DNA of 64,000 nt from Patellaria atrata CBS 101060 (GCA_010093705.1 MU006092.1:1444350-1508349), one strand, 5' to 3'; positions 20,587-48,339 are shown, counted from the stretch's first letter. Program-made: numbers and translations. The notes: a model not told the origin generated them from the sequence alone.

Positions 20587-23555
20587 ATGCGTCGGTACAA
20601 CAGGGGCAGTTCAGGCCCAACTATTTATGCCAACAAGGCAAATGGTGGGCATGTACCTGACCCTATTTCGCTCATACGCTCATACGATTCCGACACGAAC
20701 AAGACGAGGCCGGTGCGACCATCTCCTTTAACGGCCTCGACGATCTCAGGTTTGCCTTTAGACCTATTGGATAGGTTGAGATCATTCCCCCTCTTCCTCA
20801 CCGCTCCAGACTCCTTTCTTGCCGCGATCGGTACGCACCTGCGACCCCAAGTACACTCTCCTCACTCATATATCTTGACTGAGGGTGACGATGCAAAGGC
20901 CATGTACTGGCTGGTACGCGGAGGCGTTAGGGTGACGTCAAGGGATGGCGAGAGCACATACGCCGAGCTTAAACCAGGTGCTTTCTTTGGAGAGATTGGT
21001 ATATTGATGGACATCCCTCGAACAGCGACAATCATCGCCAATGTGCGATCTTTGGTAGTACGATTGAACAAGGAGGACTTGAAGAAAGAGCTACCCAACT
21101 TTCCCGAAGTGGAAAGAGCGATCCGAGAAGAAGCACAAGAAAGATTGACGATATTAGAACGAAAGAAAAAGGAGTTGAGTGCAAAACAGGTTATACCAGA
21201 TGACGGCACGAGAGTATCAAGAAGCGGAAAGAGACAGCGTGAAAGAGCGGACGGAGATATTGAAATGAGTGATGCTGGTATCATCCTCGATAGAGAGCTT
21301 GTAGGAAGTTACAAGAAGAGAAAATCCCCAAGCCCTAGTTTGGTAGACGCAGCTGCTTCTAGCGCTCTGGGGACCGGTGCTGTCAGTGTAAGACAGCTGC
21401 TCATGGAATTACCTCTTTTTTCAAGTTTGCCTCCAGAAATCTTGCATTTTCTAGGCTTGAACGCGCAGCTGAGGACATATCCATCCTTCACGGACATTAT
21501 CCAGCAAGGTTCTCAAGGTCGTGACGTATTCTTCATAGTCCGCGGTGAGGTGGAAGTGCTCGCGCAAAGACCTAGTTCAGCAGAAGGAAAGAAGACGTAT
21601 TCAACAGGAGGTACAAACGACTCTCCACGTGAATTCAAGGCCCGTCTGAGGCCGGGTCAATATTTTGGTGAAGTGACGAGTCTCTCTCTTGCTCCACGAC
21701 GAACAGCAACAGTCCGCACAATTGCGGCAGTGGAATGTCTCGTGATCAGTGGGGATGTGCTCAACGAGTTATGGCAGCGTTGCTCTCCCAACCTCCGTCG
21801 TCAAGTTGAACAAACAGCGAGGAAACGTCTTGAAGCTGCTCGTGACTTTGACGTCCCAATGGCTGATGTCACTGATGGCACACCTGCGATTGATGAGCTC
21901 GCTATCGCTGATATCGGACCTCGTACTCCCAAGAAAGCTGTACCAACTGTCACCTTTTCAGATAGTGCTTTGGAAACACCGATCACACCTAGTCGAAAGG
22001 ATGACTGGTCTGTCATGGAGCCTTCGGATCCCGACCCTTTCCTCAATGTTGATCTAGACAACATACGCTCAAGATCCCGTCGAGGATCTCTCGCTCCTCC
22101 TTCGCCTTCCAGTGGAGATTCGACCCAATCAAACAGTGCCGAATCTTCAAAACCACAGAGTCCGATAAATGGCCAGGTCATCTTTCCCTCACCCTTGAAC
22201 ACAAAGCACGATGTAACTCCTCCCGATCCGGAACCTTTTTCGCGTAGCAAAAAACCAAAGATAATACGAAGAAGTAGCCGACAGAGCAAAGGAACTCTGC
22301 CGGATGACGTCCTTGTTAAAATATTTCAAAATCTAGATGTCTACGAATTAATGAAGCTCCGACAAGTATCTGTACATTGGATGAAGCTATTGACATCTTC
22401 AAACGATATTCTCCACCATCTAGATCTCACAAAGTACAATCGGAAAGTCACGGATATCGCACTTGCTAATGCAATATGTCCATTTGTCCAGAATAGGCCA
22501 CGTTCAGTGGATATAAGTAACTGCTTCCATGTCACAGACGAAGGATTTGCTGCCCTAGCAAATGCATGTGGCGCCAATGTCACCTCGTGGAAGATGAAGA
22601 GTGTATGGGATATCACGGGACAAGCTGTTCTTGAAATGGTGACTAAAGCGAAAGGATTAGAAGAAGTGGATCTCAGTAACTGCCGTAAAGTGGGCGATAA
22701 TCTACTCGCTCGCGTGGTAGGATGGGTTGTACCAGATCTACCCCCTTCTGTTCTCGCACAGCAATATCACCAGCAGCAGCAGCAAGCTCAACAACACAAA
22801 GGTCGAAGGGGCTTTAGCCAGTCTCAAGCAGTCCAGCAACCACCCCAGCCTCTTCCTCCTGGTACAGTAGTTGGATGTCCACGTCTAAAGAAACTCACAC
22901 TCTCGTATTGCAAACATATCACCGACCGGTCTATGGCACATATCGCGATTCACGCGGCAAACCGACTTGAACAAATAGATCTCACGCGCTGTACGACAAT
23001 CACGGATAACGGGTTTCAGCATTGGAGTGTGTATCCGTTCCCGAGACTTCAGAAGCTCACTTTAGCCGATTGCACTTATCTGACAGATAATGCTATTGTA
23101 TATCTTACTAATGCGGCGAAGTCGTTGCGTGAGCTTGATCTTGTGAGTATAACCTATCATCTCCCTGTTTGTGCCTGAGTGGCCTAGCTAATCTTTTTAC
23201 CTTCCAGTCCTTTTGCTGCGCTTTGTCAGATACCGCAACCGAAGTTCTCGCTCTCGGTTGCCCGAACTTAACTCACTTGAATCTCGCTTTCTGCGGTTCT
23301 GCCGTCTCAGATGGATCTCTTCGTTGCATAGGTCTCCATCTACTAGAACTCAAGGAACTTTCTGTCCGTGGTTGTGTGCGGGTGACTGGAATCGGTGTTG
23401 AAGCCGTAGTAGATGGGTGTCATAAGCTAGAGGTTTTCGATGTCTCGCAATGCAAGAATTTGCAGCGCTGGTTAGATCAAGGCGGAGTCAAGAGGAAGGG
23501 GAGAGGTATTCGATTTGAGACTGTTGCGGATGGTAAGTGGAGGACGGGAAAATAG
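20587..23555 (+). CDS. Protein with two cyclic-nucleotide-binding domains, an F-box and leucine-rich repeats, 2 exons
   Basis: Phosphate-binding cassettes FFGEIGILMDIPRTATI and YFGEVTSLSLAPRRTATV, F-box LPDDVLVKIFQNLDVYELMKLRQVSVHW, Cys-containing LRRs (LSYCKHITD, LTRCTTITD). Intron 23143-23207. Confidence 0.92.
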
Positions 23556-26648: not shown

Positions 26649-28654
26649 ATGGCAGACTTCATAGTTCCTTCAGCTAGCAAATCAGAAACAGACGCCGATA
26701 AGAGGCTTCGTGGCCCAATTCACGCGGAGAGACATGTGCGAGTTGTAGTTGTGGGAGCTGGTGCTTCCGGGTTGCTTATGGCCTACAAGCTCCAGAGACA
26801 CTTTGACAACTACAGCGTCACTGTTTACGAGAAGAACAAGGAGGTTTCGGGAACGTGGTTTGAGAATAAATATCCGGGGTAAGTCAATTTGGAGTTCTGT
26901 ATTTCGTAAGCTAGATGTTCGGAAATAGAAAGCCTTAAGACAGGCTATTATCACCATACCCAGTACTGTACCCCTTAGTCATACGTTGATAACGAACAAT
27001 TAATTCAATATTCCAGAATGGATTTAATCTTTGGCTAACATGGGTTGATATAGCTGCGCTTGCGACGTGCCATCGCATAACTACACTTGGTCATTCGAAC
27101 CAAAGTTGGACTGGTCCGCCGTGTACGCAGGGAGCAAGGAAATCTTCAATTACTTTGATAGTTTTGCTGAGAAGTATCATCTCAAGCAATACGTGAAGAC
27201 TGAGCATCAGGTTTCTGGCTGCTATTGGAATAAGGAGAAAGGCGGCTACGATGTCAAAGTCAGAGATTTGCAGAGAGGGGTTGATATCACAGATCACTGC
27301 GATATTTTGATCAATGCAGGTGGTATCCTAAACAACTGGAGATGGCCCGCTATTCCTGGACTTCATGACTATAAGGGCACTCTTCTGCATACAGCGAATT
27401 GGGATAACAATGTTAAGTTGGAGGGGAAGCACATCGGTCTCATTGGCAACGGGTAAGTTGAGTCATTCCCATTTTTCAGTCAACCATGCTGATAAGATAT
27501 ACAGGTCATCTGGTATCCAAGTACTCCCAACCATCCAACCAATAGTCGAGAAAGTAACTACTTTCATCCGCGAACCAACTTGGGTATCACCAGTCCAAGG
27601 ACTCGAGCAACATGTCTTTACCGACAAGGAGCGTCTCGAATTCGCCCAAAAGCCCGGCACGCTAACCCAATACCGCAAAGAAGTCGAAACTGGTCTCAAC
27701 GGCCAGTTCGCCATCTTCCTCAAGGACACCAAGACCAACAACGAAACACACGACTACATGGAAGGCCAGATGAAGGGAAAGCTGAAGAACTCCTACCTAG
27801 AAGAACGCCTGATCCCCGAATGGCATGTTGGCTGCCGTCGCCTCACTCCCGGGGTCGGCTACCTCGAAGCTCTCGGTAAGGAGAATGTGAACGTGGTGTA
27901 CGGCGAAATCGAGCGCATCACCGAGAGTGGCTGCGTTTGCGACAATGGTCAGGAATACCCCATCGACGTCCTCATCTGTGCGACAGGGTTTGACACCTCC
28001 TTCCGTCCCCGCTTCCCCGTCATCGGGCCTGATGGCACAAACCTCCAGGACCAGTGGCAGCAAGACCCGGAATCCTATTTCGGTATCGCCGCGGCCAATT
28101 TCCCCAACTACCTCATTTTCCTCGGCCCGAACTGTCCCATCGGCAATGGACCGGTGTTGAGCGCGATAGAGTGCCAGGCGGATTACATGTGCAAGCTCAT
28201 CGACCGCTATCAGACTCACAATATCACGACCTTCGCTCCGAGGCAGGACGCAATCAAAGACTTCATCGCGCACAAGGATTGGTTCATGCGGAAGACCGTG
28301 TGGGCGGATCCATGTCGGTCGTGGTATAAGTTGCGTCCCGACGGGCCCGTCACTGCGCTCTGGCCTGGATCAACGTTGCATTATATCGAGGCGTTGATGG
28401 AGGTTAGGCTGGAGGATTGGGAGGTCAAGTACGCGGGGAACAGGTTCGCGTGGTTGGGGAATGGATACTCTCAGACGGAGCTGGATGATACGGCGGATTG
28501 GGCGTATTATATCAGGGAGCAGGACGATGATGAGCCGTTGAGTAGGGGTAGGAGGAGGAAGTTGTTGACGAAGAGTGGGACCATGACGCCGATTAAGGGG
28601 ATTAATTTTAGTGGTAAGGATTCTGTGGAGAAGCAGGTGCAGGCGAAGATCTGA
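26649..28654 (+). CDS. Baeyer-Villiger-type flavin monooxygenase (StcW/MoxY-like), 3 exons, ends AKI
   Basis: GAGASG, GTWFENKYPG|CACDVPSHNY, fingerprint YKGTLLHTANWD, second Rossmann GNG|SSG, CATGFD. Introns approximately 26879-27052 and 27453-27503. Confidence 0.93.
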
Positions 28655-29554
28655 TGGGATGAAGGGTAAGTGGAGATTGGTAGGTGGAAAAATAACGGCG
28701 TTATTTGTATATATCTTTGTTACGTAGGTTGCATTGTGGGTTGTGATGGATTTTGATATCAGTTGTCTATATTTCGTTTTTTAAGGCCTAGTTCTGGTTT
28801 CTCCTAAATTGAGAATATATAACAGACAGTGTACAGTTTCTTTCTCTGGTTGCTCATCAACCCATCTCGTCTCTTACCTGGAGATATGGATATCAAGAAA
28901 GAGGTAGAGTACAGTTTCGCAGAACCATAGCAACCGATTCCCACCGCCAAAAAAAGTCCCACTAACCCCTATCACAAATATTACTAAAGCGTACCTTAGA
29001 ATCCATACAACAACCTAAATATGTTTGACGATAGCACAATCATTCGCCAAATTGCCCAGCGACTCATACATCTAACCCCGAACTTTAGACCTGACTCGAA
29101 TCGAACAATATTTTATCTCCATTACAGCCGACCCCGAACCCCACGTTCTGGAATCCCGGGGTCGGGGATGGGCGGAAAAGGTGTCCTTGAGCTATGTACT
29201 TTGCGGAGGTAGGGGAAGAGGGGGGCGAGTCATGGAGCTGTGGAGTAACTTTCCCCACAACGTGGTCTACCTTAGCTGTGGGATATCTTGGAACGAGAGA
29301 GACTGACCGGTTCCTGGAGAGTTGAGGGGGGATGTAAACACCAAGGTAAACAGAAATGAAGTAAGAGACGGCGGGGGAGTTATGTACATTCATATCTGTC
29401 TCTCTTTTCTGGTCAATTTCTGTCTCAATCCCTTTGTTTTCCACGGATTGATATCGCAACCTCCACCCCTCCCTCCAAAAAAAGGTATCCGTAGAGAGTA
29501 GAAAGAGCTTTGAATCAGATAAACATAAACTGTAAGAAGTAAGAATCAAATAAC

Positions 29555-30695
29555 ATGGCACGCGCCCTCCTCAGAGGCACCGCCTTCATCACGGGCGCTG
29601 GTTCAGGTATGCTATGCTCACCCTTCGCCATTCCCACCTTTCACCCTACGCCTGAAATACTGCCCTATACTGTACCCCATCACTAAACCCCCCCTGATAC
29701 CCCCCACAGGAATCGGCCAACACACCGCCTACGCCCTCGCAACCCACGGTATCTCCCGCCTCGCCCTCGCTGACATCTCCACGCCCTCTCTCCGCACCAC
29801 AATCTCCGCCCTGCAGCACGAGCACCCGGACATCGAAGTGCTGCCGCTCCAAATGAACGTCGCGAGCGAAGAGGATGTGAAGAGGGGTATTAGGGAGACG
29901 ATGAAAAGGTTTGGGAGATTGGACTGCGCGATCAACAATGCGGGGATCGGGGGCAGGTTGGCGCCGAGCACGGAGGTCGAGAGGGCGGAGTGGGAGAGCG
30001 TTATGAGTGTCAATTTGATGGGGTGCTGGTTGTGTTTGAGGGAGGAGGTGGCGGTTATGAGGGGGCAGGAGTGAGTCTTGGGGATTTTATTTTTTCGGGG
30101 GTGGATGTGAGGGATGAGGTGGAGGAAACGGGGAAAGGGAAGGGGAGAAAGGAAGGAGAGAGAACGACACGGCTGACCTTTGTTTGACAAACAGGATCCT
30201 CGACCCTCGCGAAGGACGCGGCGTCATCGTCAACGTGGCTAGCATGCTCGGCCTGCGCGCTTCGACGCCCAACACGCCCGCCACCGCGTATACAGCTAGC
30301 AAGCACGGTGTTATGGGATTGACGAAGACAGTGAGTTTTTTTTCCCTCTTTTCCTCTCCCTCCTCATCAGTCTCCCACCCCCCTCTTCTGTCCCTTCGAC
30401 ATCCCCTTACCCCTTTCACACCATATCCACCCCCTCTAACCCCTCCCCCCAGGACGCCCTCCAATACGCCCCCCTGCACATCCGCATCAACGCCATTTGC
30501 CCGGGCTACGTCGCCACGCCTTTACTCAAGGCGTCGGCCAGCAGCGAAGCTATGGCGAGAGAGATCGACCGTGTTCCGATGAAGAGACTTGGGGAAATGG
30601 AAGAGATTGCCGATGCGGTTGTGTTTTTGTGTTCGCGCATGTCGAGTTTTATGACGGGTACGGGATTGGTGGTTGATGGGGGGTGGACTGCGTGA
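29555..30695 (+). CDS. Classical short-chain dehydrogenase/reductase, 4 exons
   Basis: TGAGSG|IG, NNAGI, VNVAS, YTASKHG, INAICPGYVAT, VDGGWTA*. Introns 29607-29709, 30071-30194, 30331-30452. Confidence 0.9.
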
Positions 30696-31246: not shown

Positions 31247-34200
31247 TCATTCCTGCTGTTTCCGCTTCCCGAGTCTCAAGTTCTCTTTCCAAAAACAACA
31301 GATGCTATTCTCCTCGCACCACTTCTGCACCATCCAGCCCTGGACATTCAATTCGATTTCTTCCATCTCCTCCTCTCCATTCACCCAATCTCCCTCGCTG
31401 CCTTCCTCATCTACCTTCTTCCCCTTCCCCTTTCCATTTCCCATCTTCTTCTTGGTCTTCTTCTTCTTGACCTGCATCTTCACCTTAATCCCCTTACCAA
31501 CTAACCACCCCGTAAGTTCCTCCACAACAATAGGATCAAAAACCAGCATCCGCTCCCACCAACTCCATCCCCTCCCCTCCTTACTCCCCTCCCCGCTACT
31601 CCTCGGCTCCCCCTTCACCGTCCTCGTTATAAGCGGGAACAGCGTCCCCTTTATAGTATCCCAACACGCCTTTGCAGCGGCAGTAGCCGCGCCATTAGCC
31701 CTCCTTGACGCAGGCGCACCGGTCACTAATTCGAGCGTGGGCTCTGATGAAGCGGTGCCACGCTTACGCCGAGGAGGGGGAGAGGGCGTGGCTTCATCTT
31801 GCGAGTCCTCGATCTCGTCGATATGCTTCCAGCCCTCTGCATCAACGTCCCCGGGATCTTTGATCTTGAGTTTGCGTGGTATGAAGGATTTTGCGCTCGT
31901 GGCGCGTTTTCTGGGTTTAGGCGGCGCATTTGGTTCTTTAGGGGGACGGCCGCGGCGTTTTGCGGGGATAGATTGGGATTCTGCACCGGGAGCCTCGGAA
32001 ACGATTAAAGAGGAAGGAGCGGGAAGCAGGCCTTGGGGTAGAGTGGACATTTTGCGCGAAGTTTGCGGTTTGGCGAGCTTGATGTTCGAGGGGAGACGTT
32101 GGAGCGGTAGCCGGTCAGGCACGGAGGAGTGGAGGGGGGACCGGGGATTGGAAAGGGCGTTGTCGCGTGCTAGTTTTGCCGTACGGAAGGATTCCAGAAC
32201 TGTGGAAGGCGAGATGGGAGCCTTTGGAGGTGGTATAGATGTATCTGAGTCAGACGAAATCGATAGTGTAGGAGTTCCACGGCGTTCCACATTCGCTGCA
32301 TATCGCTCTTCTGCGTAACTCTCGATGTCTATGAAACTGGCATCTTCAAGTGGTTGCTCAGGAAACCCTTCGTGCTCGGGTACACACGATTGTTCCGACA
32401 CAGTTACATCATCCACGGCAGAAGTCCCGATAGTTGTCGGTTTATCAGCAATATTCTGATCATGTACAATGTCATCATATGATTCAATATTGACAAATAC
32501 ACCCTCTTCATTTGGACTATCCAGTTGTTGTTGAGGTCGCGGTTGTACCCTTTCAGGGGCAAGCAGAGAGTCATCAAAGTCTCTGGTTGCGGCTGACCAA
32601 AGGTGCCTCTTTGCTTGTATATCGGATAGCTTTGTACTTCTTAATGTTACTTGGGCATCATCCTCTTGGGGGAAAGCAATTGACTCTGATTCTCGCATCG
32701 CTTGTTGCAAGTCTCTGAGAAATGTCGGAGATTCCCCTCCAGCCAATTGACTGGAAGTACCGAATAAGATATCTTGATCAGGAAACCTACTCACAGCAGA
32801 CTCCGGAGAGAGTAATTTCAACCTCGATTGGGCAAGTTTCTTCTTGACGGTACTCTTCTTGGTCTTCTGTCCCCTATCCGTCTCCGCTCGTTTTCTTGGT
32901 GATTTATTCCGAGCTCTTTCTTTCAGATTGGTATATTGAACTTTATCTGCCTCACCAGCACCTGCAGAGCTAGCTACAGACCGAGGGGGAAAGGATTTAC
33001 GAACCGGAGCTGGTTCTAGGGTACCTGCTTCCCCAACCGGCGTTCTGTATTGAGCGGTCACCCTATCTGTGATTGTTACAGGCTTCTTCTTCGGCGGTTT
33101 AGCTCGTTTCTCTGTTGGCCCCTCAGTCGCAGCAGATTTCTTAAGGATTTCATTAGATGCAGCTGGTGTTACCGTAGGAAGCAGCTACTGAAATTAGAAT
33201 TGACAAATTAGGGATAGACAAGGGATATTACTTCGATCTTTCTCCGTTTCGTCACCGCCTCCCCAGACGCTTCTCTTGGAAGTACTGGAGCTTCGACTGT
33301 TACATTTTGAAAGCTAAAGTCCGCTAGGACATCACCAAAACCTAGTTTTGGTGTAATTTTCTGACCGATTTCATGGCATACTTGGGTTAAGCTTGGAGAG
33401 TCATCTTCAAGAGTTTTCTGGGTATCTTTCACTGGTGTCCAATCAGTTCGCCTTCTGATCGCCTTATCCAGTTTCAAGTTCTCTACTACCACCTGCTCTC
33501 CACCGACCGTCACAGTTTGAGCGAAATGAGATGAAGTAGTACCAGTAGATTTAGATTCCTTTCTCTTGGCCTCTGATACCTCCTTTAAAGCGCTCTTTTG
33601 CTTGTTCTTAGTCTCATTGTCCTTTCCAGGTTTTGTAACTTTGCCTTTCTTCAATTTCGTTTGGGACTCATCCTTCATCTTTTTTGTTCTAAGCTTCCTC
33701 ACCTTCGCGGGCGCTTTTGGTCCATCTACCTCATCCTCTTCCTGTTTCGCTACAGCCAATGTGCTCTGCTCTTTCTCTAGAACTTTATATACCTTAGGTT
33801 TGGATGTCCTCGGCTTCCTTGGCTTCTCTTTTTTTTCTACAGGTTCCTTCTCCACCACTCTCGCCTGAGACCTTTTTGTTGCTTGCTTAATGGCTTTTTT
33901 GACACCGGAGGAAGGCTCCAGATTGTATTGTTCGTAGATGTCCACACTTAGTTGCTTTGCTTTCAGGAGGTTACAAGCACTTTCGAAGCTCACAATTGCG
34001 CCCTCGGGGATTGCTGCCGCGCGAGATCCAGTCCTCAGCCCATTGACATTGGCATTATTACTCTTGATAAGCGAAGAAAGAGACGGTAGGTCTGAGGATA
34101 TAGTGGATTGTCCACATTGCGCGCTCGGAGGTGTCGCGACGAGATCGGACGGAAGTCGAGGTGGAGAGGATGAAAGCACGACTAGCTCCATTGTAGCCAT
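31247..34200 (-). CDS. SLX4: Structure-specific endonuclease scaffold subunit Slx4, 2 exons
   Basis: AIRRRTDWTPVKDT, KKKPVTITD, QDILFGTSSQL, LWSAATRD, C-terminal SWWERMLVFDPIVVEELTGWL..VQKWCEENSICCFWK. Intron about 33185-33231. Confidence 0.9.
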
Positions 34201-34870
34201 TTGGAGCAGCCTGCGAGTCGAACATAAGTTAAGCAACAGCGTAACGGTTTAGGGGCATAGAGAAAGGGAAAAATACAGCAAACAAAGGGAGGGGAGAACC
34301 GAACAAATCGTTGTTTACATTCGCCCGCTGTTGGAACAAAGATGAACTCGCCAAGGAATCCCCGATCAAAACGCGTCTTCACGGGTTGTCGCATTGCCTA
34401 TCCTGCTCAACTTCCCCATCGAGGATTGTACACTCGCTGTACAAACGATAGCGGACCGCAAATACTAACTCTTCGGTCAATATACACGTATTGTACATAT
34501 ACTGGTGTACTATCAACTTTTACCCTCTGGGATGTTCTCATATTCTATATCGTAGTCGGATATCTTTCCCAATGATAACCGTACAAGAAGTCGGAGTGCC
34601 AATAGCAAGTAAGGATTCTCTCGAAGCCCAGTATGAAGTATCCATTGACCCAGACTCCATGGGACTCAGGATTTGAACGCTATCATCCATACTACTAATC
34701 GTTCTAAGTGAGCTGGGGAGTTACTCTCTGTCCTGTCCACCTAGCAAGACATGGACAATATTCATTAATATTCAATCTACATCCATTAACTTGAGTATTA
34801 CTGAGGTTTCCAGCCAATACTCCCATTTAATCAACTGGAATTATTTACAAGGGACACGAATAAGACGCAC

Positions 34871-37016
34871 TCAAACTCTTCCCCGTCTGAGAAAAACGTT
34901 TGGAATATCAACATACTTAGCGCGGAGGTATTCCCCAACATTCTTTCCAAGTCCATCATACGTACTCGACGCATTGTAGGATCTATCTAGATGATCATGT
35001 AGTAGGAAATGTACTGCTTTGATTCCGGGCATCTCAAAACGATCAACGTCCTTCCCGTTGTACTCGGGACCAAGCAGCTGCTTGATTTTCGGGATCGTCA
35101 AGAGTGACTTCAGCCATTCATACTCATCGTCTCGTCGGACGAAGAAACCGACATTAGCATCAGATGCTAAAAGAGTCAGCACATGGAGAAACCAGAGATG
35201 CAAAGGACCACTTACCCTTATCACCAGAACGGCATAGTATAACCCAACCCAAAGGTCCCCTTGTTGTTGGTCCAAAACTCTTGAGGTCAACCGGATTTTG
35301 AGTCTCGTAGGACCACTGCCTAGGCTCGTACAGCTTGACACTCGGCGATGGTGGAACAGAGACCGTCTGGTTCGACCAGAGGAAGTTCACCTTGTGCTCT
35401 ATCTCCGACTGTGGAATCAAAGCTGCCCAGTACTCAAAGAACTCTTTCCCTGATGACTGACGGATGTCGTTCTCAATTGTTGCACCAGGACAGCTCTGAA
35501 GGAAATTTTCGATACACCATCTGTTTAGTCCGGGAGTCGCGTTATCTTTGGGTGCAACCAGGGATTGGTCCTTCGTCTGTGCGAATATTCTGAAGTCGAC
35601 AGTTGCGTAATCTTGATTCTCTGGATCCGGTTGGCTGTAGCCATTGACCGTAAAGTTAAGGACCGAAAATTTCTTTGCGTTTTCGCCCATAGATTTTAGA
35701 ATTTGTCTCTTAGTCCATTCTGCCTTTTGCTCGATATCTAGTCCGCTGTTGTGTTTGTTAGCTCTCTTCAAATTTTCTATGCATCCATCATTTGCTTACC
35801 AAAGATAGTAGTGGAATTCTGAAAGTCAATATGTTAGTTGTGTTGTCTGACTCTCCTTGGCATAGTAAACTTACCAGCTTGCCATCCCCCTTTAGCTGTT
35901 AAGCCGACTTTTGTCGTCGTTGGCGGTGGATTTCCTTTCACACCTGTAACAAGAACCTGATCTTTTCCTTCTTGAGTCATCTTCAGACCTTCAATATTTG
36001 CTACCACATCAGAGCCATAGTACAGAGGTCCCTGTATCTCGTAGAGCAATTGCGAAGCAACAGTACCGACGGAGATCTGTTCAATTAGTCCCATCATACC
36101 ACTCCAGACTACTTGAAAGACTTACCTCTCCACCAGTCCCAGGCTCCTTCTCCATCTTACAAGTGCCATCGCCGTATACTTCCGCAATTGGAAATCCAAG
36201 GTTTTCGCAACCATCGAACAACTCTTTAAACCCACTATAATACCCCCCACAAGCGTAACTAGAACACTCGATCAGATGCCCGGCCATCAATGCTCCAGCT
36301 ACCTGGTCATAATCACTATGCCTATCCCACCCATGCCACCACATGGCTGCGCCAACTGTTGGTGCTGCATCTGCAACGCGTCCACAGATTACGATATCAG
36401 CACCATGCTTGAACGCTTCTGCAATACCTGCGCCTCCTAGATAGCACTGTGCGGCTACAGGCTCGAAGCCCCAATTTTTGAGCTCCCCGCCAAAGCAGAT
36501 GTTTTCAAATTTCTCACCCTGCTTAAGGAGCTTATTGACGATATGAAGCACATCATCCCCCTCAATCCACGCAACCTTTAAATCATAACCCTCGCTCGCA
36601 ACCGTTTCTGCAATCTTCTTCGCTAACATTTCCGTATCGCTCGCCCCCGCGTTAACTGCCACCTTGATTCCCTTTTTGCTAATATTCGGCAGCGCCGGGA
36701 CAAAACTCCCCATGAAACTCGGGTCGTAGAGGCCCACTCTTTCCCCGCTATCTCCTTTCTTCGCGATCTCGGCTTTTGCGGCCCCTTGCCAGGACATCGT
36801 GCACTCGCTCATCCAATCCCCGACGATCACGTCGACGTCAAGTTTTGCGAGGTCGGCCATTGCGCGCTGTCGATCTGTGAAACCACCTGAAGCACCCGCG
36901 ATGCGGATGCCCCGTTTTGCCTCGCCGTTGGCGGCGGTGCGAGAACGTTTCGCGGTGCCGTTAGAGCCATTGGAAGTTCCATTGGTTGCCACTGCGGTTG
37001 CTGAACGTTTGGTCAT
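34871..37016 (-). CDS. Acyclic terpene utilisation AtuA family (DUF1446) protein with C-terminal SGDK domain, 5 exons including a 19-nt micro-exon
   Basis: IRIAGASGGFTDR, GDWMSE, GADIVICGRVADA, GHLIECS, QLLYEIQGPLY, RSGDK|ASDANVGFFVR, DGLGKNVGEYLRA. Confidence 0.92.
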
Positions 37017-38032
37017 AGTGGGAGGTGGGAGTACGAGAGTCTAGGGTTCGGGTAGGAAAGAGAGGATTGTAATTGAGAGAAGGGAACGAAGGGGAAGAAA
37101 AAAAGGGAGTGGTGATCAAAGAGTGAGAGCTGCAGTAGCTATGACAGCTTTACTTCAAACTTTTAGGTCCTACAGTAATTCATAAGGAAATATGGCTAAT
37201 CGGCTTGAACTGTCACAGGAGCAGAGCTACAAGGTCTCAGGACCTGATACCAAGAATTACGAGGTTCTAGATGAAATTCACGGACTTCTGACATGACACT
37301 CCAAATTCCACTACAACACACTTTCATGACAAAGCGTCTTTTCTGCAATAGACAACCGACAACACAGGGTCCGCGCGTCCTGATATCCAAACCTTTGCCG
37401 CGCGAGTCATAGTCAGGACCTCTCCGGCTTTATTCCGATTCAAGGTGTTCTGGACGTGGAGTTTGCGGAGATATGATAGCGGGGTGGACCTGTAGTGGAT
37501 GATGTTTTCCGGTGTGGAGTAGGAACAGCAACTGGACAAACTAGACTAAGGAAACGCTAATTTCGAAATGGAAAGAAAACAAATCTGTATTAAATGGAAA
37601 TGTAATGAGATCAAAGATTATAGTAATCGTCATCGCAGAGAGATAGTAGGGGTGATGTTCTAACTCCTTGAAGAACGTATAAAATAGCGAGATTATACTT
37701 CTCTGGGGTGGCGAATATCACGTTGAGGAGTTCGGATATGAACGCATGACAACTTCTATTATGACTTGTAGAAATCTCACTATTCGATGATAGGGTCTAC
37801 AGTAAGTACTCTTTTCATGAGGAAACCATTTAATCGACCATATGGATATGTGTGTTCTAGATATGCGCAGGCGTAGTCTCTATTCATATATGAGTTGTTA
37901 CATTAGTACCGCCGACTCGGAGGACTCTTCAAGAGCAGATGTATAATAAACTAGTAATGCTACCTTAAGTTAAAGGCACAGGTGAAAAATACATTCATAA
38001 ACGCCCAACTATATGCAAACCCTCCAAACCAC

Positions 38033-39470
38033 CTACAACAAATGTACCGGATCCCCCCTGATATACTCCGGCTCAACCCCCCATTTCGGTCCCAACTCCT
38101 CAAACCTATTCTGATACCGCTCATGACGTTCCTTGAACCCCTTCGCCGTCTTGATCTGATCCCTCCCCACCTGATGCCTATGCGCCGCATCGGGCCCATC
38201 CGCCACCCGCACAAATCTCGCATAAGTCCACAGCTCCGGCAACGGGGTGTGTTGCGTCAAACCCTGGCCGCCGAACATTTGCATGCACTCATCAATGATC
38301 TTCGCGGCGGCGAGCGGGACCATGATCTTGGACTGTGCGATCGCGTACCTGCCGGCCTTGTTCCCGAACTGGTCCATCGTGTCGGCCGCGTTCATGGTCA
38401 CGAGCCGCATCGCGTCGAGCTCCATGCGCATGTCGGCGATGCGCTCGATGTTGGAGTCAAAGTCGGCGATGCGCTTGCCACGTGGCTTCTTCCTCTCGTC
38501 AATCGCGCGGATCAGCGCCAGCTCGTAAGCTCGCTCCGATTGTCCCAGGAGACGCATGCAGTGGTGGATTCGACCGGGGCCGAGACGGCCTTGGGCGATT
38601 TCGAAGGCCCGTCCTTCGCCTAGGATGATGTTCTCGGCGGGGATTCGAACGTTCTCGTACACGTACTCGCCGTGGCCTTCGGGCGCCCAGTCCATGTTCA
38701 TGATCGTCAGGTTTCGAACCATCTTCAGCCCCGGGGTGTCCTTTGGCACGATGACTGTCGTGTGGCGGGCCCAGGGGTTCGGGTTCTCGGGGTCGGAGCA
38801 CCCCATCAGGATGTAGAATCCGAGATCCTCATTCCAGGCGGCGTTGCCGTAGAGCTTGCGGCCGTTGATGACGAGCGTGTCGCCGTCGCGCGTGATGCGG
38901 CAGTTTATGTTGGTTGCGTCGGAGGAGGCGACGTCCGGCTCCGTCATGGAGTAGGCGCTGGATGTCTCGCCGTCGAGGAGCGGTTGTAACCACTTCTTCT
39001 TTTGCGCTTCATTACAGAATTTGGCGAGGAGTTCGATGTTGCCTGTTTCGGGGGCGTGGCAGTTCATTGTCTGTTTTGATATTAGTCCTAATTCTTAGTA
39101 TATGGGGGACCAGAAATGAAGGGGGGGTTACCATTGGAGCCCAGTAACATCTTCCCATGATCTCAGCACAGCATGCATATTCGAGATTTGTGAGGCCGGG
39201 AGACTCCTTGAAGGTCCTAGGAAGGAAGAGATTGAATAGCCCCTGAGCCTTTGCCCTTTTCCTGAGCTCTTTGATATATGGGGGTGTTCTCCATTTCTTT
39301 GCAGCTACTTGGGCCTTTACGATGGGCTCGGCGGGTATACATTCATTCTCGACCCAGTCATAAACCTTTTTGATGGTTTCAATGGCTTTAGGTGAGCATT
39401 TTGCTAATACCCATGGGGGAATACGGGCGAGTCCTGGGTGATTGTCCTGGTTCAACAATGTCGGAGCCAT
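38033..39470 (-). CDS. Acyl-CoA dehydrogenase of the ACAD10/11 (IBR3/FadE2/LvaC-like) type, stand-alone, 2 exons
   Basis: GLFNLFLP, GLTNLEY, MNCHAPETGNIELL, MTEPDVASSDATNI, FEIAQGRLGPGRIHHCMR, RVADGPD. Confidence 0.93.
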
Positions 39471-39584
39471 TCTTGTGTGATTCTATAATTTGATGAATGA
39501 TGAGAGATTTTCAATTGAGTCTCAGAAAGAGACACTTTTACACGTCTATCCAAATTGTTCTCCATTTTGTGTACAAGCTCCAGT

Positions 39585-39590
39585 CCTCGG
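39585..39590. promoter_or_regulatory. CCTCGG (FarA/FarB core) in the divergent ACAD/esterase promoter
   Basis: Exact hexamer in a ~380-bp intergenic region. Confidence 0.5.
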
Positions 39591-39847
39591 TATGCGGGTG
39601 TTTAGGGCATTTCGCGGGGAGTCGGTTGTCAAGAACCGCAACCTCGCTCGGACCCTGGAATCCATCCCAAATGGAAAGGGGACAACCTTTAGCCCAAGCA
39701 ACTTCCCTTACTGTACGCAATGACTGGCGGCTTGACGTTAGAGTACATATTTGGAAGCCCCAATGGAGGGGCAAACGCTCTTGACATCGTGTATAGAGCT
39801 GTTGCTCCTCCAAACCAGTATCTATACCCATAAAACCGAGCGCAAGG

Positions 39848-40989
39848 ATGGGTGAGGACATCTTCCATCCCGACTGGCTACAGGTACGCAATAGCTATAT
39901 AGCTATTCAAATATTCGTTGAGGCTATGCTAATGCCATGGACAGTTCGAAAAAGAGATAGGCTACCGCCCTCTTCTCTATCCACCCTTTGTGCGCATCCA
40001 AGAGCAATTCCAGAAATTCGGCGGTATCCTTGTCTCGAAATATGAATTTCCAGCTCCAGACCCATCCGTCAAGACCGCTGACCATACCACCAAATCCGGA
40101 ATCAAGGTCCGCGTCTACACTCCGGAAAACTACAGCAGGAACAAGCCCGTAGGAGTCTACTTCCACGGTGGAGGGTGGGCCATGGGCTCCGTCGATGAGT
40201 ACGAGGCCGAATGCCGCACGATGGCGAAATTAGCGGACGTGGTGCTTGTCTCGGTGGATTACAGGCTTGCACCTGCGAGTAAATGGCCCGGCCCGATTAA
40301 TGATTGCTACGAGGGATATCTATGGGCGGTGGAGCATTCGAAGGAGATTGGGGGTAATGGGAAGTTGTTTACCACGGGTGTATCTGCCGGAGGGCATCTG
40401 GCGCTCAGCATCGCTTTGAAAGTAATCGACGATGGTAAGGGGGATTCTTTGAAAGGCGTCGCGGCCTTCATGCCGGTTACGTGCCATCCGAGTGCTTATC
40501 CTGCGGAATTGAGGGAAAAGTTTGAGGCGAGGGAGAAGTTTGCGGATTTGACGATTGATACCAAGGATGCGATGGATGAGTTCTGGAGTATGTCGAATGG
40601 CCCTGATACGCATTAGATTCATCTTCCTGTTATTGTGGATACTGATTAGTACAGACCTCTTCGGAGCACCCCCTGACCACAAATACGCTTCTAACCTTCT
40701 ACACACCAAGATCGGTTCGCTCCCCAAGGTTTACTTAAATGCAGCAGGCGTCGATACTCTCAGGGACGACGCCAGGGTTTTTAAAGAAATCTTGGATCAA
40801 AAGGGGTAGGAGATTCCATCTTTCTCCCACATTTCTTACCACTAACTTCTTTGTAGTGTTCCAAACAAGTATGATGAGTTCGAAAAAGTCCCACACTTTT
40901 TCTATGCATTCCCGGCTCCTTGCTTGAAGAAACTCAGTGAGGATTACTTTAGCAGAATCACGAAGGGGATTGAGTATGTTATTAGTTGA
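39848..40989 (+). CDS. HSL-family alpha/beta hydrolase (carboxylesterase/possible lactonase), 4 exons
   Basis: YFHGGGW oxyanion motif, GVSAGG nucleophile elbow, GVDTLRDD acid, VPHFF His. Ends IEYVIS*. Confidence 0.9.
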
Positions 40990-41969
40990 AGTGTTTGTCC
41001 ATGAGCGACAGAACTCTTTCAAGACAGGAGATTTTGTGTCGTAGACCTCAAATATGCAATTCAATGTTTATATTTCTATATTTACGAACGACCTATTTTG
41101 TTAGAGGTCACAAGATCAATGAAGCCACCTGCTCTTCAGCTTATCAACAAACGGTTCGTGACTTGTTTTCATAACCCAGTATCAGTGGACTAATGGTACA
41201 TATCTCCCATCACATCTAACAGGCCTAATACGAAAACAGGTCCTGAGGTCGACTCTCCGAGGGGGCACACAGACCCCATATTTCGGGGCCTGAGTTGGGG
41301 CCAATAATGTACCACGCCTTCCTCGGAGGGCATGAGAACTGTGTTACCCTTTTTTTTCTTTTTTCCTTTTTTTGTTGTTGTTGAGGAATAAGGAAGAGCT
41401 GCTAAGGATAACTATGAAGAAACATATCTCTGCGCCTAAATAAAGTGAAAGAACTATACCGACACACCAAATTATTTCTAACGGTCGAAAGGTAATAGAC
41501 AAATGCAGAAACAGATTTACTTCCCATTCCTCCACGTCTCTTGCTCTGACTTTGACTCCCCTAGGAGGACACCGGGGAGGTCGGACTACATTTTGGTTTC
41601 TTTTCTGTAACTCCTTGGGCTAACAAATCTTCAGCAGGTTCTGATATCAAGGGAATACTCGTAAATGAAACAGGAGAAGGGAAGAGGCGGAGAGGGGCGA
41701 CTGTTATTATAGTGATTGATTCGCTTAGTCATCTGCCCGTCTTTGAAGTTTAGCATGAAAGTCACTGGATGTTGGTATGTTTTCATGTTGTGAGTCTCTG
41801 TAGCTGATTGGAGTATGCTATTGATCAGATTTACAATTATTCTTCTTTTTCCTCATACGCTTTAAAACACAATTTTATTCAACGGATATGATGCTCGCAA
41901 GGACAGGTACGTTGTTCTCCGTCCATGTGATATCTGTACAAGAACGTTTATCTACTCTTCACATCTACG

Positions 41970-43204
41970 CTACGGAATAATCTTCGCCCTCCGAAATCTC
42001 TCAAACGCCGTCCACCATGTCTTCTTCGAATCCCATTCTTCTTTCAGATCTCCCCAAACCTCATGCGTCTTCGTCATATCCAGCTGACGATCAAAATCCA
42101 GCATCGTCATGATAAAGTACGGGAATCCACCAAAACTAATATCATTCCCGACCCTACCGGTCTGCAGCCCATACTCCTTCTCTAACTTGTGCCATTCATT
42201 GACATGGTCCCCGACATATTGGATCGGCTGCGGCGCCTGGCCTTCTGGTAGCGGCCCTGTGCCCTTCAGTCCGAAGAACTCACAGATGACGGGCCACTTC
42301 TGGGACCAGGAAGAGGGCTTAGAGTTGTCGCAGGTATTGTAGGCCTGATCACCCGTCTTATCCCCGTGCAAAGAGGCGCAGATGGCGAACTTAGCAATGA
42401 GATCCTGGCCAGAGTCATTGCTGAGATTCTTCCAACTCCTCTGCGTGCCTGGGAACGGACACTCCGCGCCCTTGCCCTCGATGCTAGCGTACAAGGTCAG
42501 ATACAACGCTAGTGCTTGCGCGAGACAGTAGATATTGTTGTTCGGAACAAAGCCAACGATCATGTCTGGCCGAACTTCGGCCCAGGTCCAGGATTTGCCC
42601 TTGGATAGGGACGCCAGCAGGTCGACTTGGTTGTAGTAGAACATTTCAGAGGCATAGGGCTCAGGAATACGGGGAAGGCTCTCTTTGCACGGCAGGTCGT
42701 TGGAGAATGGGAACTTGTCCAGAAGGTGCACGCCATACGCCTTGGTGCCAGTGGGGAGTATGACAAATTCGAGGGAGGAGGAGAGATTCTCGACGGCTCT
42801 GACGGCACGGGAGAGGAGTTCGACGTTGACGGATATCTCAGCGGAGGGCTCGGGTTTCATGATGTAGGCTGACGAAGATATTAGAGGGAAAACTTAGAAA
42901 TATGATTCTAGGTCGATTCCGTACCGAAGAAAAATACGTGAGAAACAGTGTCAATATTTTTCACTTTGCTCTTCATCTCCTCCTCTAGTCCCTTTTGTCC
43001 CTTCTCAGTGAGAAGGTCTAATCCGCTTACAACCTGGAGCTTTTCGCTCTCCGGCCATTGTGCTGCCTCCTTGCTCAGAGGTCTGTTTGTGAGGGCTGTG
43101 ACCTTTGAGAAGCTATCCTGGGATGGGTATCCTTCAAGCAATTGGTTGACAATCGCCCAACCTGTGATCCCACTGGCTCCGTATACCAAGGCGTGATTAC
43201 CCAT
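41970..43204 (-). CDS. PRISE-family atypical SDR, copy 2, 2 exons
   Basis: HALVYGASGITGW, LPTGTKAYG, MFYYNQ, RPDMIVGFVP, RAKIIP. Intron about 42868-42923. Confidence 0.9.
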
Positions 43205-43595
43205 GACTCTAGGGTTAAAAAAAATAGCTCTATAAGGAGAATAGATAAGAAATATTGGACAGAACAATCGAAGAACAGCAGCAATATAGTACCTTTTGAA
43301 CTACTAGACCACCATTGAATATGCTTACCTGCCCCGCCTTCAGAGCATGCTGCGGAACTGGAGGGGCGATATAGTGGAATTTTACAAGCGCACTATTATG
43401 ATTAGCGAATTGAGTCGCCATTCTCGTTGTATGATGGTTGATGGTTGAAGGAGAAAGTAATCCGAAGTCAGTCGGTAGCGTATGGTTCACGTTTCTAACT
43501 TGAAACGGAAAGGTGTAACGACGGGCTAGCTCTTCTCACCCTTGTCGGCAAATGACATGAAGCTTGCGGAGAAGATGCGGCGAGACTGGACACTC

Positions 43596-43601
43596 CCGAG
43601 G
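43596..43601. promoter_or_regulatory. CCGAGG (FarA/FarB core) in the divergent PRISE/APH promoter
   Basis: Exact hexamer, with nearby CGG triplets (gcgga..gcggcg). Confidence 0.5.
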
Positions 43602-43770
43602 CTCTGAAGCTATCGAGCTCTAACTGTTGCCTCTATTTTCAGCAACAATGCTGGAACAGCGTGAAAAAGGATTTTGTAGTCGCTCTGCATTCTTTTTTGT
43701 CAATCGCAATAGATCGCATTACTGTGCCACGACGTCGAACTTTACAAGGCTGTGAAAACTCCCGGTAAAT

Positions 43771-45002
43771 ATGGCAGGTCCTGTTCGACAGCCAATCGAT
43801 CTAAAGGTACTGGAAAGATATATTAACGTAACTGTACCTGAAATCAAAACTCCTTTATCGATCAAGCAGGTATGATTAACGAGCAGAACCTTGTTAGAGC
43901 AATTGTACTGATAGGGGGGTTCAAGTTCGGATTTGGACAATCGAATCCCACTTACCAGCTCACGGACAAAACTGGTAAAAAATATGTTATGCGAAAGAAG
44001 CCCCCGGGGAAACTCCTCTCGAAATCCGCGCATAAAGTAGAACGGGAATACCGAATAATACATGCTCTGGAACAAACTGATGTCCCGGCACCGAAAGCAT
44101 ATTGTCTTTGCACGGACGACAGCGTTGTCGGAACACCGTTCTATATCATGGAGTTTCTTGACGGCCGGATCATCACAGAACCTCATATGCCAGAAGTTTC
44201 ACCAGAAGACCGGAGAGAGATGTGGCATGATGCTGTTCGGACCTTAGCAAGACTACATCGTTTGAACCCGAAATCAATAGGGCTTGAAACGTTCGGAAAG
44301 CCAAGTGGGTTCTATAACCGCCAGATAGCAACATTCACCGTTCTAGGCAAAAATCAAGCTTCCGCAGTTGATTTAGAATCGAAGGAGCCGGTTGGACCAA
44401 TCCCTCACATGACTGAACTTGCAGAATTCTTCAAAGAAATAAGATACCAGCCGGAGGATCGTGCTGTGCCCATTCACGGCGATTATAAAATTGACAATCT
44501 GGTGTTTCATAAGACCGAACCTCGAGTAATCGGTATACTAGAGTAAGATGTCGATCCTAAGTACCCGTTTACCTTTGCTAAGTCAATTTCCAATAGTTGG
44601 GAAATGTCGACGATAGGTCATCCACTTTCTGACGTTTGTAATTTGGTCGCGCCATACACGATATCAAATGCGTTTTCTAAGCCACAAATGCATTGGTATC
44701 CGGAATTCCGCCCTGGAGGTATTCCAGAGGGTTTGCCTTCTCGCGATCAGTGCCTGGAATGGTATAGCGAGGTTGCTGGTTGGGATCCTCGTGCCGAACT
44801 AACCTGGGGAATCGCATTCGCGTTTTGGAGGGACAGTATAATTTTCCAGGGTATCGCCGCCCGGTACGCTGTGAGACAAGCAAGTAGTGTACAAGCGTAT
44901 AAAGTTGGACAAGAGAGGACACCATTTGCAGGGCTGTGCTGGAAACTTGTGCAGGAGGAGAAACAAAAAAGGAAGGGAGATAGAGTAAAAGCAACCTTGT
45001 GA
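43771..45002 (+). CDS. APH/choline-kinase-family phosphotransferase homologous to the ACAD10/11 N-terminal kinase domain (LvaA-like), 3 exons
   Basis: [10 protein letters not shown].., [71 protein letters not shown]. Confidence 0.93.
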
Positions 45003-47264: not shown

Positions 47265-48339
47265 ATGATTCAACCTCTACCTTCCCAGAACGCCTCCCCT
47301 GTGAGCGAGTACGACGGTAGTTCTAGTTCAGCAATCAGAGCACGCAAAATGTCTTCCACTGGTGGAAACAGATCTTGGTCTGAAGAAGAGGTATGTACTT
47401 CCTAACCAGAGTCTACAGTGTGTATTCTGATATGTGTTGTAGGAGAACTACCTACTGCAAACCAGAATGCAAAAGATGCCATACAAGCATATTGCTGCAC
47501 ATCTAAAGAAGACCGAACTTGCATGCCGCCTTCACTACCACCAACTGTCTCACGGTAGTCACCGCCGCAAGAGGACTACCTCTGTTTCTTCGTCTGTCTC
47601 TTCTGGATCCGCCAACGCATCTCCTCATATCCCTCAATACCAACTTCCTCACGAACGTGCTGAGTACACTCCCAGCGAATCTTCTCGACATGCCTCTCCC
47701 CTCACCTACAGCCCTCAGGTTCACTATACTGCTACTCACTCTTCCCCAAACCGTGTCCAACATAAAGTCTTGCTCCCAAAGCCCCGCCCCCACACCCCGG
47801 GCGAGTCCCCAGAGCCAATGAACGGTCTCCGTATTAATACCGCTGAAAGTGTCATCAACCCATCTCCCATCGACACCAACCGTCTTCGTGCCATATACGA
47901 GGCTCGCAGAGCCGACTTCTGGTCTTCCATTGCCGCTGAGTATGGTAGCCACGTCTCACCCGCTCAGCTCGAGGATATCTGGCGCCGGGGCAACAATATC
48001 GTCCGTCCCTTGACGCCCGATCACAGCCCTGATGGTAGCATCACCGCTCACCCGGTCCTTAAACCATCTCCGTTCCCCCAGTACTCTTCCTCCGCTGTCG
48101 AGCCATCAACCAAGAGCTTCAGCCCTATCAACCCCATTGTGAGCGCAGTCTCTGTTCCAGACAGGGTGAACTATGTTCTTCCGGCCCCTACTCCAAATCC
48201 TCAATTGTCGAGAACGAGTACCTGGAGCAGCACCTCCAGTGTCCCTGCTACATCGATCTCGGCGCTCTTGACTGAGGATAAGAGCCCCAGACCCGAGTAC
48301 AACCCGGACGTGGTGATGAGGGATGGGTACCACCATTAG
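47265..48339 (+). CDS. Myb/SANT-like DNA-binding protein, 2 exons
   Basis: RSWSEEE|ENYLLQTRMQKMPYKHIAAHLKKTELACRLHYHQL, second motif FWSSIAAEYG..LEDIWR. Intron 47391-47442. About 2.2 kb upstream non-coding region. Confidence 0.82.

Follow-up and report, generated by a model that had tools for sequence, protein, structure and literature searches.

Why should a fungus keep the two halves of an ACAD10/11-type enzyme as separate genes in the company of an esterase, a reductase and an AtuA-like protein, and what would such a set of genes be for? The question is raised by five genes at positions 34871 to 45002 of a 64,000-nucleotide stretch of the genome of Patellaria atrata CBS 101060 (GCA_010093705.1 MU006092.1:1444350-1508349), the whole of which is called the window in what follows. 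A first, sequence-only reading had taken them for a candidate cluster resembling Pseudomonas putida's lva operon and devoted to the catabolism of 4-hydroxy acids and lactones. The chemistry of ACAD10/11 was solved only in 2024-2025, in mammals and in one Pseudomonas operon, and databases already annotate the pair as 'ACAD family member 10/11'. We conclude that the five genes are a genuine metabolic gene group of P. atrata with a split ACAD11 as its core. What is new, and is offered here as a set of testable leads, is a conserved trio of esterase, acyl-CoA dehydrogenase (ACAD) and kinase, a dedicated kinase clade, a link to Baeyer-Villiger monooxygenase (BVMO), PRISE and AtuA genes, and a reading of AtuA as a lyase.

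The kinase and the dehydrogenase

The ACAD gene occupies positions 38033 to 39470 of the minus strand (exons 39470-39132 and 39070-38033) and encodes a protein of 458 amino acids, identical to the deposited P0121, with an ACAD10/11-type fold and the predicted function of a 4-phosphoacyl-coenzyme A (CoA) phosphate eliminase. Against the PDB, its second exon matches the mycobacterial ACAD 4hr3 (E 8.8e-81) and the ACAD11 entries 2wbi (5.7e-79) and 8v3u (2.9e-78), while the best match among classical ACADs is medium-chain acyl-CoA dehydrogenase at 1.5e-29, so that the protein stands nearer to ACAD11 and its bacterial orthologues. The usual catalytic residue of an ACAD is Glu, at the place where mouse ACAD11 has D753. 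In the alignment on 8v3u, 'RVADGPD' of the window falls on 'RLADGPD', chain index 752 being D753, and the catalytic Asp is thus present; the equivalents of R626, H634 and R637, the last two belonging to HCMR, are identical, which keeps the phosphate-handling set whole. The segment 'QGRLGPGRIHHCMR' is the same in the window ACAD and in 8v3u (chain indices 623-636) and is invariant in 14 fungal relatives. The structure of ACAD11 has been described as handling the phosphate with the catalytic Asp, an HCMR motif specific to ACAD10/11 and an upstream Arg (PMC12440821; this and the other papers cited here by PMC number are drawn on in excerpt).

The kinase gene lies at 43771 to 45002 on the plus strand (exons 43771-43869, 43926-44542 and 44597-45002) and encodes an APH kinase of the ACAD10/11/LvaA type, 373 amino acids long and identical to P0001, which is predicted to act on 4-hydroxyacyl-CoA. 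An apparent frameshift between its exons 1 and 2 disappears once the splice acceptor of P0001 is adopted, 11 bases beyond the one first considered (intron 43870-43925), which leaves the gene intact. In the PDB the protein matches 3dxp at 1.4e-45 and the ACAD11 kinase domain at 1.6e-36. Aligned on 8v3v, it keeps the equivalents of D220 and N225 ('HGDYKIDN' on 'HGDFKLDN'), the Arg that replaces Lys in strand beta3 ('YVMRKKPPG' on 'YVLRKKPPG', containing the VMRKKP motif) and R176 ('YNRQIATF' on 'CKRQVSTW', chain index 175 being R176), and the metal motif DWE is found in 'ILDWEMS'; another reported residue, R86, could not be placed in the chain numbering used. R176 has been implicated in CoA binding by the ACAD11 study (PMC12440821), and a beta3 Arg, HxDxK and DWE are motifs described in PMC13596139, all of them present in P0001.

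Because the pair keeps every catalytic residue reported for mouse ACAD11, the two proteins very probably share out, as far as sequence comparison can tell, the activities of one enzyme, with a 4-hydroxyacyl-CoA kinase in the one and a 4-phosphoacyl-CoA phosphate eliminase in the other. The proposal that they represent a divided ACAD10/11 has accordingly held up: E values to ACAD11 are about 1e-78 (ACAD domain) and 1e-36 (kinase domain), and all hallmark residues are kept. The fused architecture of ACAD10/11 and of IBR3, their plant counterpart, is not found here: the two genes lie on opposite strands with 4.3 kb between their start codons. Stand-alone kinases of 360-375 amino acids are common in Pezizomycotina, 3226 of 3398 scored candidates (restricted to lengths of 122-391 amino acids) reaching E ≤ 1e-10, and the stand-alone fungal kinases of this family nearly all end in -AKL, -GKL, -ARL, -SKL or similar. 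With a relaxed pattern of our own making, C-terminal tripeptides resembling a type 1 peroxisomal targeting signal (PTS1) were counted in 99/103 full-length kinases, 23/62 ACADs and 2/40 esterases. The ends of the kinase family suggest peroxisomal targeting, and the compartment of the pathway is probably the peroxisome.

The gene block and its three further enzymes

Pfam searches recovered all five families on the strands assigned by the sequence-only reading, with Abhydrolase_3 at 4.6e-33, APH at 2.7e-34, three Acyl-CoA_dh domains in the ACAD, PRISE at 5.7e-125 and 4.9e-41 in the reductase, and AtuA plus AtuA_ferredoxin at 1.5e-98 for the first exon of the AtuA-like gene. Gene models were built by hand with short GT..AG introns, which all five genes contain; for ACAD, esterase and kinase they agree letter for letter with proteins deposited for P. 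atrata CBS 101060. The contiguity of the five genes was confirmed to the base, as were the two divergent pairs and the absence of any housekeeping gene, or indeed any other gene, from the run. ACAD and esterase diverge from a promoter region of 377 bp between their start codons (39471 to 39847), and PRISE reductase and kinase from one of 566 bp (43205 to 43770). The block is flanked by Slx4 (31247-34248) on one side and by a Myb-like gene (47443-48339) on the other. Between 34500 and 45300 there are zero differences from contigs built from two DNA runs of one sample, which may be the assembly's own data and so lend no independent support; a simple repeat between esterase and reductase (41346-41392) was skipped in this comparison.

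The esterase (39848 to 40989, plus strand; exons 39848-39883, 39945-40587, 40655-40805 and 40857-40989) is a carboxylesterase of the HSL family (Abhydrolase_3), 320 amino acids long and identical to P0251, and a candidate lactone or ester hydrolase. Its PDB matches are esterases (down to E 2.6e-32) and vibralactone cyclase (1.8e-26). The translation contains HGGG ('YFHGGGW') and G-x-S-x-G ('GVSAGG'), and we take the Asp in 'GVDTLRDD' and the His in 'VPHFF' to complete the triad. The PRISE reductase, PRISE1 (41970 to 43204, minus strand; exons 43204-42925 and 42868-41970; 392 amino acids), covers positions 1-90 and 90-394 of the family profile, that is, its whole length, and matches 5-beta-reductases and iridoid synthases in the PDB at 1.4e-20 to 1e-13. 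Its motifs 'GASGITG', 'TGTKAYG' and 'MFYYNQ' presumably mark the NADPH site and the catalytic Lys and Tyr. Enzymes of this family reduce the activated C=C of 1,4-enones (PMC11643720), and an NADPH-dependent reduction of an activated C=C is predicted for PRISE1.

The AtuA-like gene (34871 to 37016, minus strand) has four exons (37016-36126, 36076-35875, 35776-35216 and 35166-34871) and encodes 649 amino acids in which DUF1446 and the AtuA ferredoxin-like domain are fused; it is a predicted C-C lyase of the CmlA type. A plain sequence search of the PDB gave zero matches, and CmlA was reached only through the family profile and the fold. The profile matches, at E 8.8e-6, a PDB sequence named 'AtuA family protein | Citramalate lyase, subunit A (cmlA)', and a structure predicted for P0394 from an alignment of 46 fused, full-length relatives (predicted local distance difference test, pLDDT, 87.4; predicted template modelling score, pTM, 0.89) has the fold of citramalate lyase subunit A, whose structures are PDB 9erq and 9evf, known here by their entry names. 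The window protein, which contains both the AtuA and the ferredoxin-like domain, keeps 13/13 invariant and 33/38 near-invariant columns of that alignment, and a search of a protein atlas with AtuA returned only the family's own clusters.

Acetate release from a tertiary carbinol was reportedly once proposed for AtuA in the breakdown of terpenes. From the modelled fold we infer that the window AtuA may likewise be a C-C lyase performing this reaction. It had been supposed earlier that AtuA handles a branched, terpenoid-type acyl chain; a CmlA-type lyase does suit branched chains, but that role was a guess, and the fold names a different chemistry. According to excerpts of a preprint using CmlAB, the enzyme cleaves citramalate directly to pyruvate and acetate, and a 2015 paper remarks on a DUF1446 gene for which it had no explanation within the methylaspartate cluster of enterobacteria. 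Three bacterial AtuA loci were scanned (L055, L057 and L058); AtuA lies beside classical ACADs in 3/3 and beside acyl-CoA carboxylase subunits in 2/3. Compared with CmlAB and the Pseudomonas atu cluster, the fungal protein is only 13-16% identical to CmlA and has the two subunits fused, and the neighbouring fungal ACAD is of the ACAD10/11 type, unlike an AtuD-like enzyme, and has no carboxylase beside it.

Conservation of the grouping in fungi

Linkage in other fungi was judged from the order of accessions or locus tags, from contigs of equal size and from metagenome or metagenome-assembled genome (MAG) contigs; accession order was checked on P. atrata itself, where ACAD (KAF2841027), esterase (ending 028) and kinase (ending 030) agree with the gene order. 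The esterase lies 1-3 accessions or locus tags from ACAD or kinase in 13/13 species with both positions (Patellaria, Aaosphaeria, Zopfia, Lophiotrema, Lophium, Mytilinidion, Massarina, Cucurbitaria, Amniculicola, Polyplosphaeria, Trichodelitschia, Verruconis and Alternaria ventricosa), a rate biased by the fact that these Dothideomycetes were chosen beforehand for contig sizes that already matched. For kinase and ACAD the distance is 1-3 positions in 10/12 species, the exceptions being Pycnora and Aspergillus floccosus, where the two are unlinked, and one extra gene sits between the two in Polytolypa, Myotisia, Tothia, Mytilinidion and Lophium. Esterase and ACAD or kinase matches also fall on contigs of equal size in seven further cases (4.8, 7.9, 8.3, 14.2, 14.6, 17.9 and 19.8 kb), which points to tight linkage in further fungi. 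In Lojkania and Venturia effusa the esterase and the only listed kinase, one of clade B described below, are on different contigs.

Six fungal metagenome or MAG contigs (L001-L006) were compared with the window. One of them, L004, has the order aldehyde dehydrogenase (ALDH), Zn-dependent alcohol dehydrogenase, AtuA, esterase, ACAD, PRISE1 and a type I BVMO, in which AtuA (70-74% identity to the window), PRISE1 (64-73%), BVMO (69-73%) and ALDH (82%) all have close counterparts in P. atrata. L003 carries ACAD, a Zn2Cys6 factor, a P450, PRISE and AtuA, and has a TRI12-like transporter of the major facilitator superfamily (MFS) and two P450s beside the ACAD; L005 carries a PRISE2, esterase and ACAD. 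The divergent ACAD/esterase pair recurs in L004 and L005, and in L002 the kinase precedes the ACAD in a tandem that mirrors how the ACAD11 domains are arranged; no partner was seen in L001. Four loci extend 10 kb beyond the ACAD in one direction or both, and in these its partners are PRISE in three, esterase in two, AtuA in two and kinase in none. L006, whose MAG bears the label Deltaproteobacteria, probably represents fungal sequence that was binned with a bacterium. Its ACAD shares 72% identity with the fungal protein, where bacterial loci from the same search share 38-51%, and the match begins only at residue 114, the site of the intron in the window.

The flanking genes of the window, Slx4 and Myb, do not accompany the cluster genes in L003-L005. 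Co-localisation beyond general synteny is found for esterase, ACAD and kinase, and in part for PRISE, AtuA, BVMO, ALDH and P450. Of the expectation that the genes would be co-localised in other fungi, the trio has survived in many Dothideomycetes, together with PRISE in 3/4 and AtuA in 2/4 of the long loci, but the full five-gene arrangement was found nowhere else.

Kinase and ACAD phylogeny

Among 52 kinases placed in a tree, every linked one, with those of the window and of two Onygenales among them, falls into a single clade of 21 rows (clade A; Shimodaira-Hasegawa-like approximate likelihood ratio test, SH-aLRT, 99), and the second copies of Pleosporales form clade B together with the kinases of Leotiomycetes, Eurotiales and lichen fungi and with unlinked kinases. 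Since the linked kinases thus form a clade of their own apart from the second copies, the tree indicates that the cluster kinase is a dedicated paralogue. The ACAD tree contains a clade of 18 rows (support 96) that holds every linked ACAD other than that of Patellaria. The kinases (P0002, P0021) and ACADs (P0157, P0176) of the Onygenales Polytolypa hystricis and Myotisia sp. nest among the linked Dothideomycete copies, a placement for which horizontal transfer, or an ancient paralogue since lost from other lineages, could be responsible.

The wider neighbourhood in the window

Genes that touch the ACAD in other fungi appear, by orthology, to be scattered over three patches in the window, with housekeeping genes between them: the first at 0.3-12 kb (ligase, short-chain dehydrogenase/reductase (SDR), P450, ALDH and PRISE2), the second at 27-30.7 kb (BVMO and SDR) and the third being the five-gene block. 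The limits 34871-45002, set by the stop codons of AtuA and kinase, consequently describe the contiguous block exactly yet are set too tightly for its biology, as orthologues of BVMO, ALDH, P450 and PRISE2 lie inside the cluster elsewhere.

The probable extension of the block is the type I BVMO (27049 to 28654, plus strand; Pfam FMO-like), orthologous to the L004 monooxygenase that adjoins PRISE, ACAD, esterase and AtuA and that matches cyclohexanone, phenylacetone and steroid monooxygenases. The SDR beside it (29529 to 30695, plus strand; Pfam adh_short) is a possible extension, for which the other loci gave only matches of 27-40% and no orthologue. Possible distant members, all assigned by Pfam, are the ALDH (6187 to 8380, minus strand), whose L004 counterpart is 2.6 kb from AtuA; a cytochrome P450 (4239 to 5677, plus strand), 58-60% identical to the L003 P450 adjoining PRISE and AtuA; and PRISE2 (10781 to 12073, plus strand; PRISE 2.7e-164), 43% identical to PRISE1 and 62% to the L005 PRISE adjoining esterase and ACAD. 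The five genes have no CoA-activation step of their own, and a candidate for it is a ligase resembling 4-coumarate:CoA ligase (4CL) of the AMP-binding family (327 to 2103, lower end uncertain, minus strand; Pfam 2e-60 and 1.3e-11), likewise a possible distant member, of which no orthologue was found in L001-L006. The first patch also contains an SDR (2535-3367, plus strand) and an open reading frame (ORF) without a family (9328-9939). Between the metabolic patches, at 20548-23178, a large gene of one exon encodes a cyclic-nucleotide-binding F-box/LRR protein that has no bearing on the present finding.

A pathway for lactones and ketones, and its alternatives

We hold it somewhat more probable than not, judging from the gene content, that the locus is a catabolic neighbourhood for ketones, enones and lactones, possibly terpenoid ones, in which the kinase-ACAD pair would clear 4-hydroxyacyl-CoA. 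In such a pathway, PRISE would saturate the activated C=C of an enone, enal or butenolide, and the BVMO would convert a ketone into a lactone or ester. The esterase would open this product and could also re-open the gamma-lactone formed spontaneously from 4-hydroxyacyl-CoA. Dehydrogenases and the ligase would yield an acyl-CoA, which beta-oxidation would shorten until the hydroxyl stands at C4, where the blocked thioester would tend to lactonise. The kinase would then phosphorylate the 4-hydroxyacyl-CoA and the ACAD eliminate the phosphate, giving a 2-enoyl-CoA for further beta-oxidation, and the lyase of the AtuA/CmlA type would split acetate off a tertiary carbinol and so bypass a methyl branch.

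Several observations weigh against this account. Its likely substrates, oxygenated and possibly branched (terpenoid) ketones and lactones, or acids derived from 4-hydroxy-alkenals, are inferred in their entirety. No second locus with the exact five-gene order was found; in L003, L004, L005 and L006 no kinase lies within 10 kb of the ACAD, and L006 has no partner at all on its one long side. The L004 esterase is only 43-47% identical to that of the window, and the PRISE genes of L003 and L005 are paralogues other than PRISE1. Within the window, the housekeeping gene Slx4 separates the BVMO and its SDR from the five genes (the BVMO being 6 kb from AtuA), and the patch with ALDH, P450, PRISE2 and ligase is 23-34 kb away. 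The five genes include neither a transcription factor nor a transporter, and eight upstream regions share no promoter word, the nearest being one 7-mer in five of them, with nothing of 8 or 9 letters; the CGG..CCG pairs present show a scattered distribution. The Patellaria kinase ends in -ATL and the ACAD in -HLL, neither a canonical PTS1, and the ACAD groups with those of Fonsecaea and Capnodiales outside the 18-row linked clade, although an approximately unbiased (AU) test did not reject uniting it with that clade (p 0.32). Finally, in 44 bacterial loci, AtuA and PRISE were found beside the ACAD in 0 cases each and an esterase in one, by a weak match.

The alternative that survives best is that only the esterase-ACAD-kinase trio is functional, salvaging 4-hydroxy acids and gamma-lactones from ordinary peroxisomal beta-oxidation, with PRISE and AtuA as bystanders; we consider this possible, if clearly not the likelier account. 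The trio is the sole part found in many named genomes, and in most Pleosporales examined esterase and kinase are two accessions apart, leaving room for one gene, presumably the ACAD. The paralogy of the PRISE genes near the ACAD in L003 and L005 also speaks for it, as does the size of the PRISE, P450 and ALDH families in fungi, from which chance neighbours are to be expected. It is opposed by L004, where orthologues of AtuA, PRISE1, BVMO and ALDH, all of which are also in the window, are contiguous with esterase and ACAD, and by the small size of the AtuA family (2220 representatives at E ≤ 0.001 among 1.84 billion), which makes two recurrences beside the ACAD in four long loci unlikely by chance.

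It is improbable that the locus is a biosynthetic cluster whose enzymes tailor a polyketide or terpenoid secondary metabolite. The Zn2Cys6 regulator, TRI12-like MFS transporter and two P450s of L003 are usual features of such clusters, and hydrolases of the HSL type can build lactones, the vibralactone cyclase among the esterase matches being a case in point. In Fusarium verticillioides, a gene run with a polyketide synthase contains an adjacent esterase (FVEG_12524) and acyl-CoA dehydrogenase (FVEG_17290), next to a hypothetical gene (FVEG_17291); these genes are reported as not induced by the lactams and lactones tested (PMC10512309). Neither the scanned ORFs of the window nor those of L003-L005, however, contain a polyketide synthase, non-ribosomal peptide synthetase or terpene cyclase domain; the sole adenylating enzyme is the short 4CL-like ligase, kinase and ACAD keep the residues of the catabolic enzyme pair, and the PTS1-like ends of most kinase relatives point to the site of beta-oxidation.

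Improbable too, finally, is a kinase acting on 1-O-alkylglycerol or another lipid alcohol, with the esterase working on the matching lipid esters: such activity is reported for ACAD10 and several prokaryotic homologues of the kinase domain, with 3dxp, the best PDB match of the window kinase, named among the closest structures (PMC13596139), but the kinase stays beside an ACAD with the Arg/HCMR/Asp phosphate set, which has no role in ether-lipid salvage, and it conserves the CoA-binding R176. The alkylglycerol and 4-hydroxyacyl-CoA kinase activities are not mutually exclusive.

Relation to known systems

Because AtuA and PRISE are absent, and the esterase match weak, in the 44 bacterial loci, the association of esterase, PRISE and AtuA with the pair appears from these comparisons to be a fungal assembly, not one inherited from an operon of the lva kind. 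A kinase homologue neighbours the ACAD in 18/44 of these loci, a sample biased by its having been drawn with two peptide patterns from the fungal sequences, and those loci at 38-43% identity that have no kinase may represent another ACAD subfamily. AtuA is encoded in 4/5 of those bacterial genomes, and in the three whose positions for both are comparable it is on another contig from the ACAD10/11-like locus or megabases away.

Both domains of mammalian ACAD10 and ACAD11 are homologous to the fungal pair, with D220, N225 and R176 of the kinase and R626, HCMR and D753 of the ACAD in common. The fungal pair differs in consisting of two genes on opposite strands with two genes between them, in lacking the HAD domain and in having esterase, PRISE reductase and AtuA-type lyase genes around it. 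ACAD11 is the peroxisomal form of the mammalian enzymes (PMC11342911), which may be compared with the PTS1-like ends of most fungal kinase relatives. In the lva operon of P. putida, LvaA (kinase) and LvaC (ACAD) are separate but closely encoded proteins with the same chemistry as ACAD11 (PMC12440821, PMC11342911). In contrast to that operon, the fungal genes have introns and divergent promoters; no equivalent of LvaD or LvaE, nor a small LvaB-like ORF, was seen among the five genes, no search having been aimed at LvaB, and the nearest SDR is 4 kb and the ligase 33 kb away.

Bacterial routes for ketones and lactones, such as those for cyclohexanone and monoterpene ketones, combine a Baeyer-Villiger monooxygenase with a lactone or ester hydrolase. 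L004 resembles them in that its cyclohexanone-type monooxygenase is accompanied by an enone reductase, by dehydrogenases and by a hydrolase of the alpha/beta type; unlike them, the setting is fungal, and in the window the BVMO stands apart, beyond Slx4. A search of the literature outside subscription journals returned no fungal account of the kinase/ACAD pair or of the cluster, and no description of a BVMO/hydrolase set tied to a 4-hydroxyacyl-CoA kinase/eliminase pair and an AtuA-type lyase. The available portions of an Aspergillus oryzae levulinate transcriptome, a Fusarium sacchari ACAD survey and an Aspergillus nidulans suberin study contain no mention of the pair or cluster.

Implications

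The neighbourhood suggests, on the evidence of its gene content, a fungal source of 4-hydroxyacyl-CoA, namely lactones and esters that would arise by Baeyer-Villiger oxidation or be taken up from plants. It also offers a compact gene set that includes a protein of the AtuA family, whose function has otherwise been assigned only for the newly solved citramalate lyase. Possible practical angles may be seen in the fungal turnover of aroma lactones, of biomass levulinate and gamma-valerolactone, and of terpenoid ketones.

A more specific proposal, which we regard as rather unlikely to hold as a whole, is that in Dothideomycetes, and through transfer or ancient paralogy in some Onygenales too, the dedicated second kinase copy together with ACAD, esterase, BVMO, PRISEs and the fused CmlAB/AtuA lyase would constitute a peroxisomal route by which branched (terpenoid) ketones and lactones are catabolised. 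In it the lyase would remove the methyl-branch block as acetate, and kinase and ACAD the gamma-hydroxyl block. If true, such a route would be the first role assigned to the AtuA family in eukaryotes, and it would give enzymes of the ACAD10/11 type a defined natural source of substrate.

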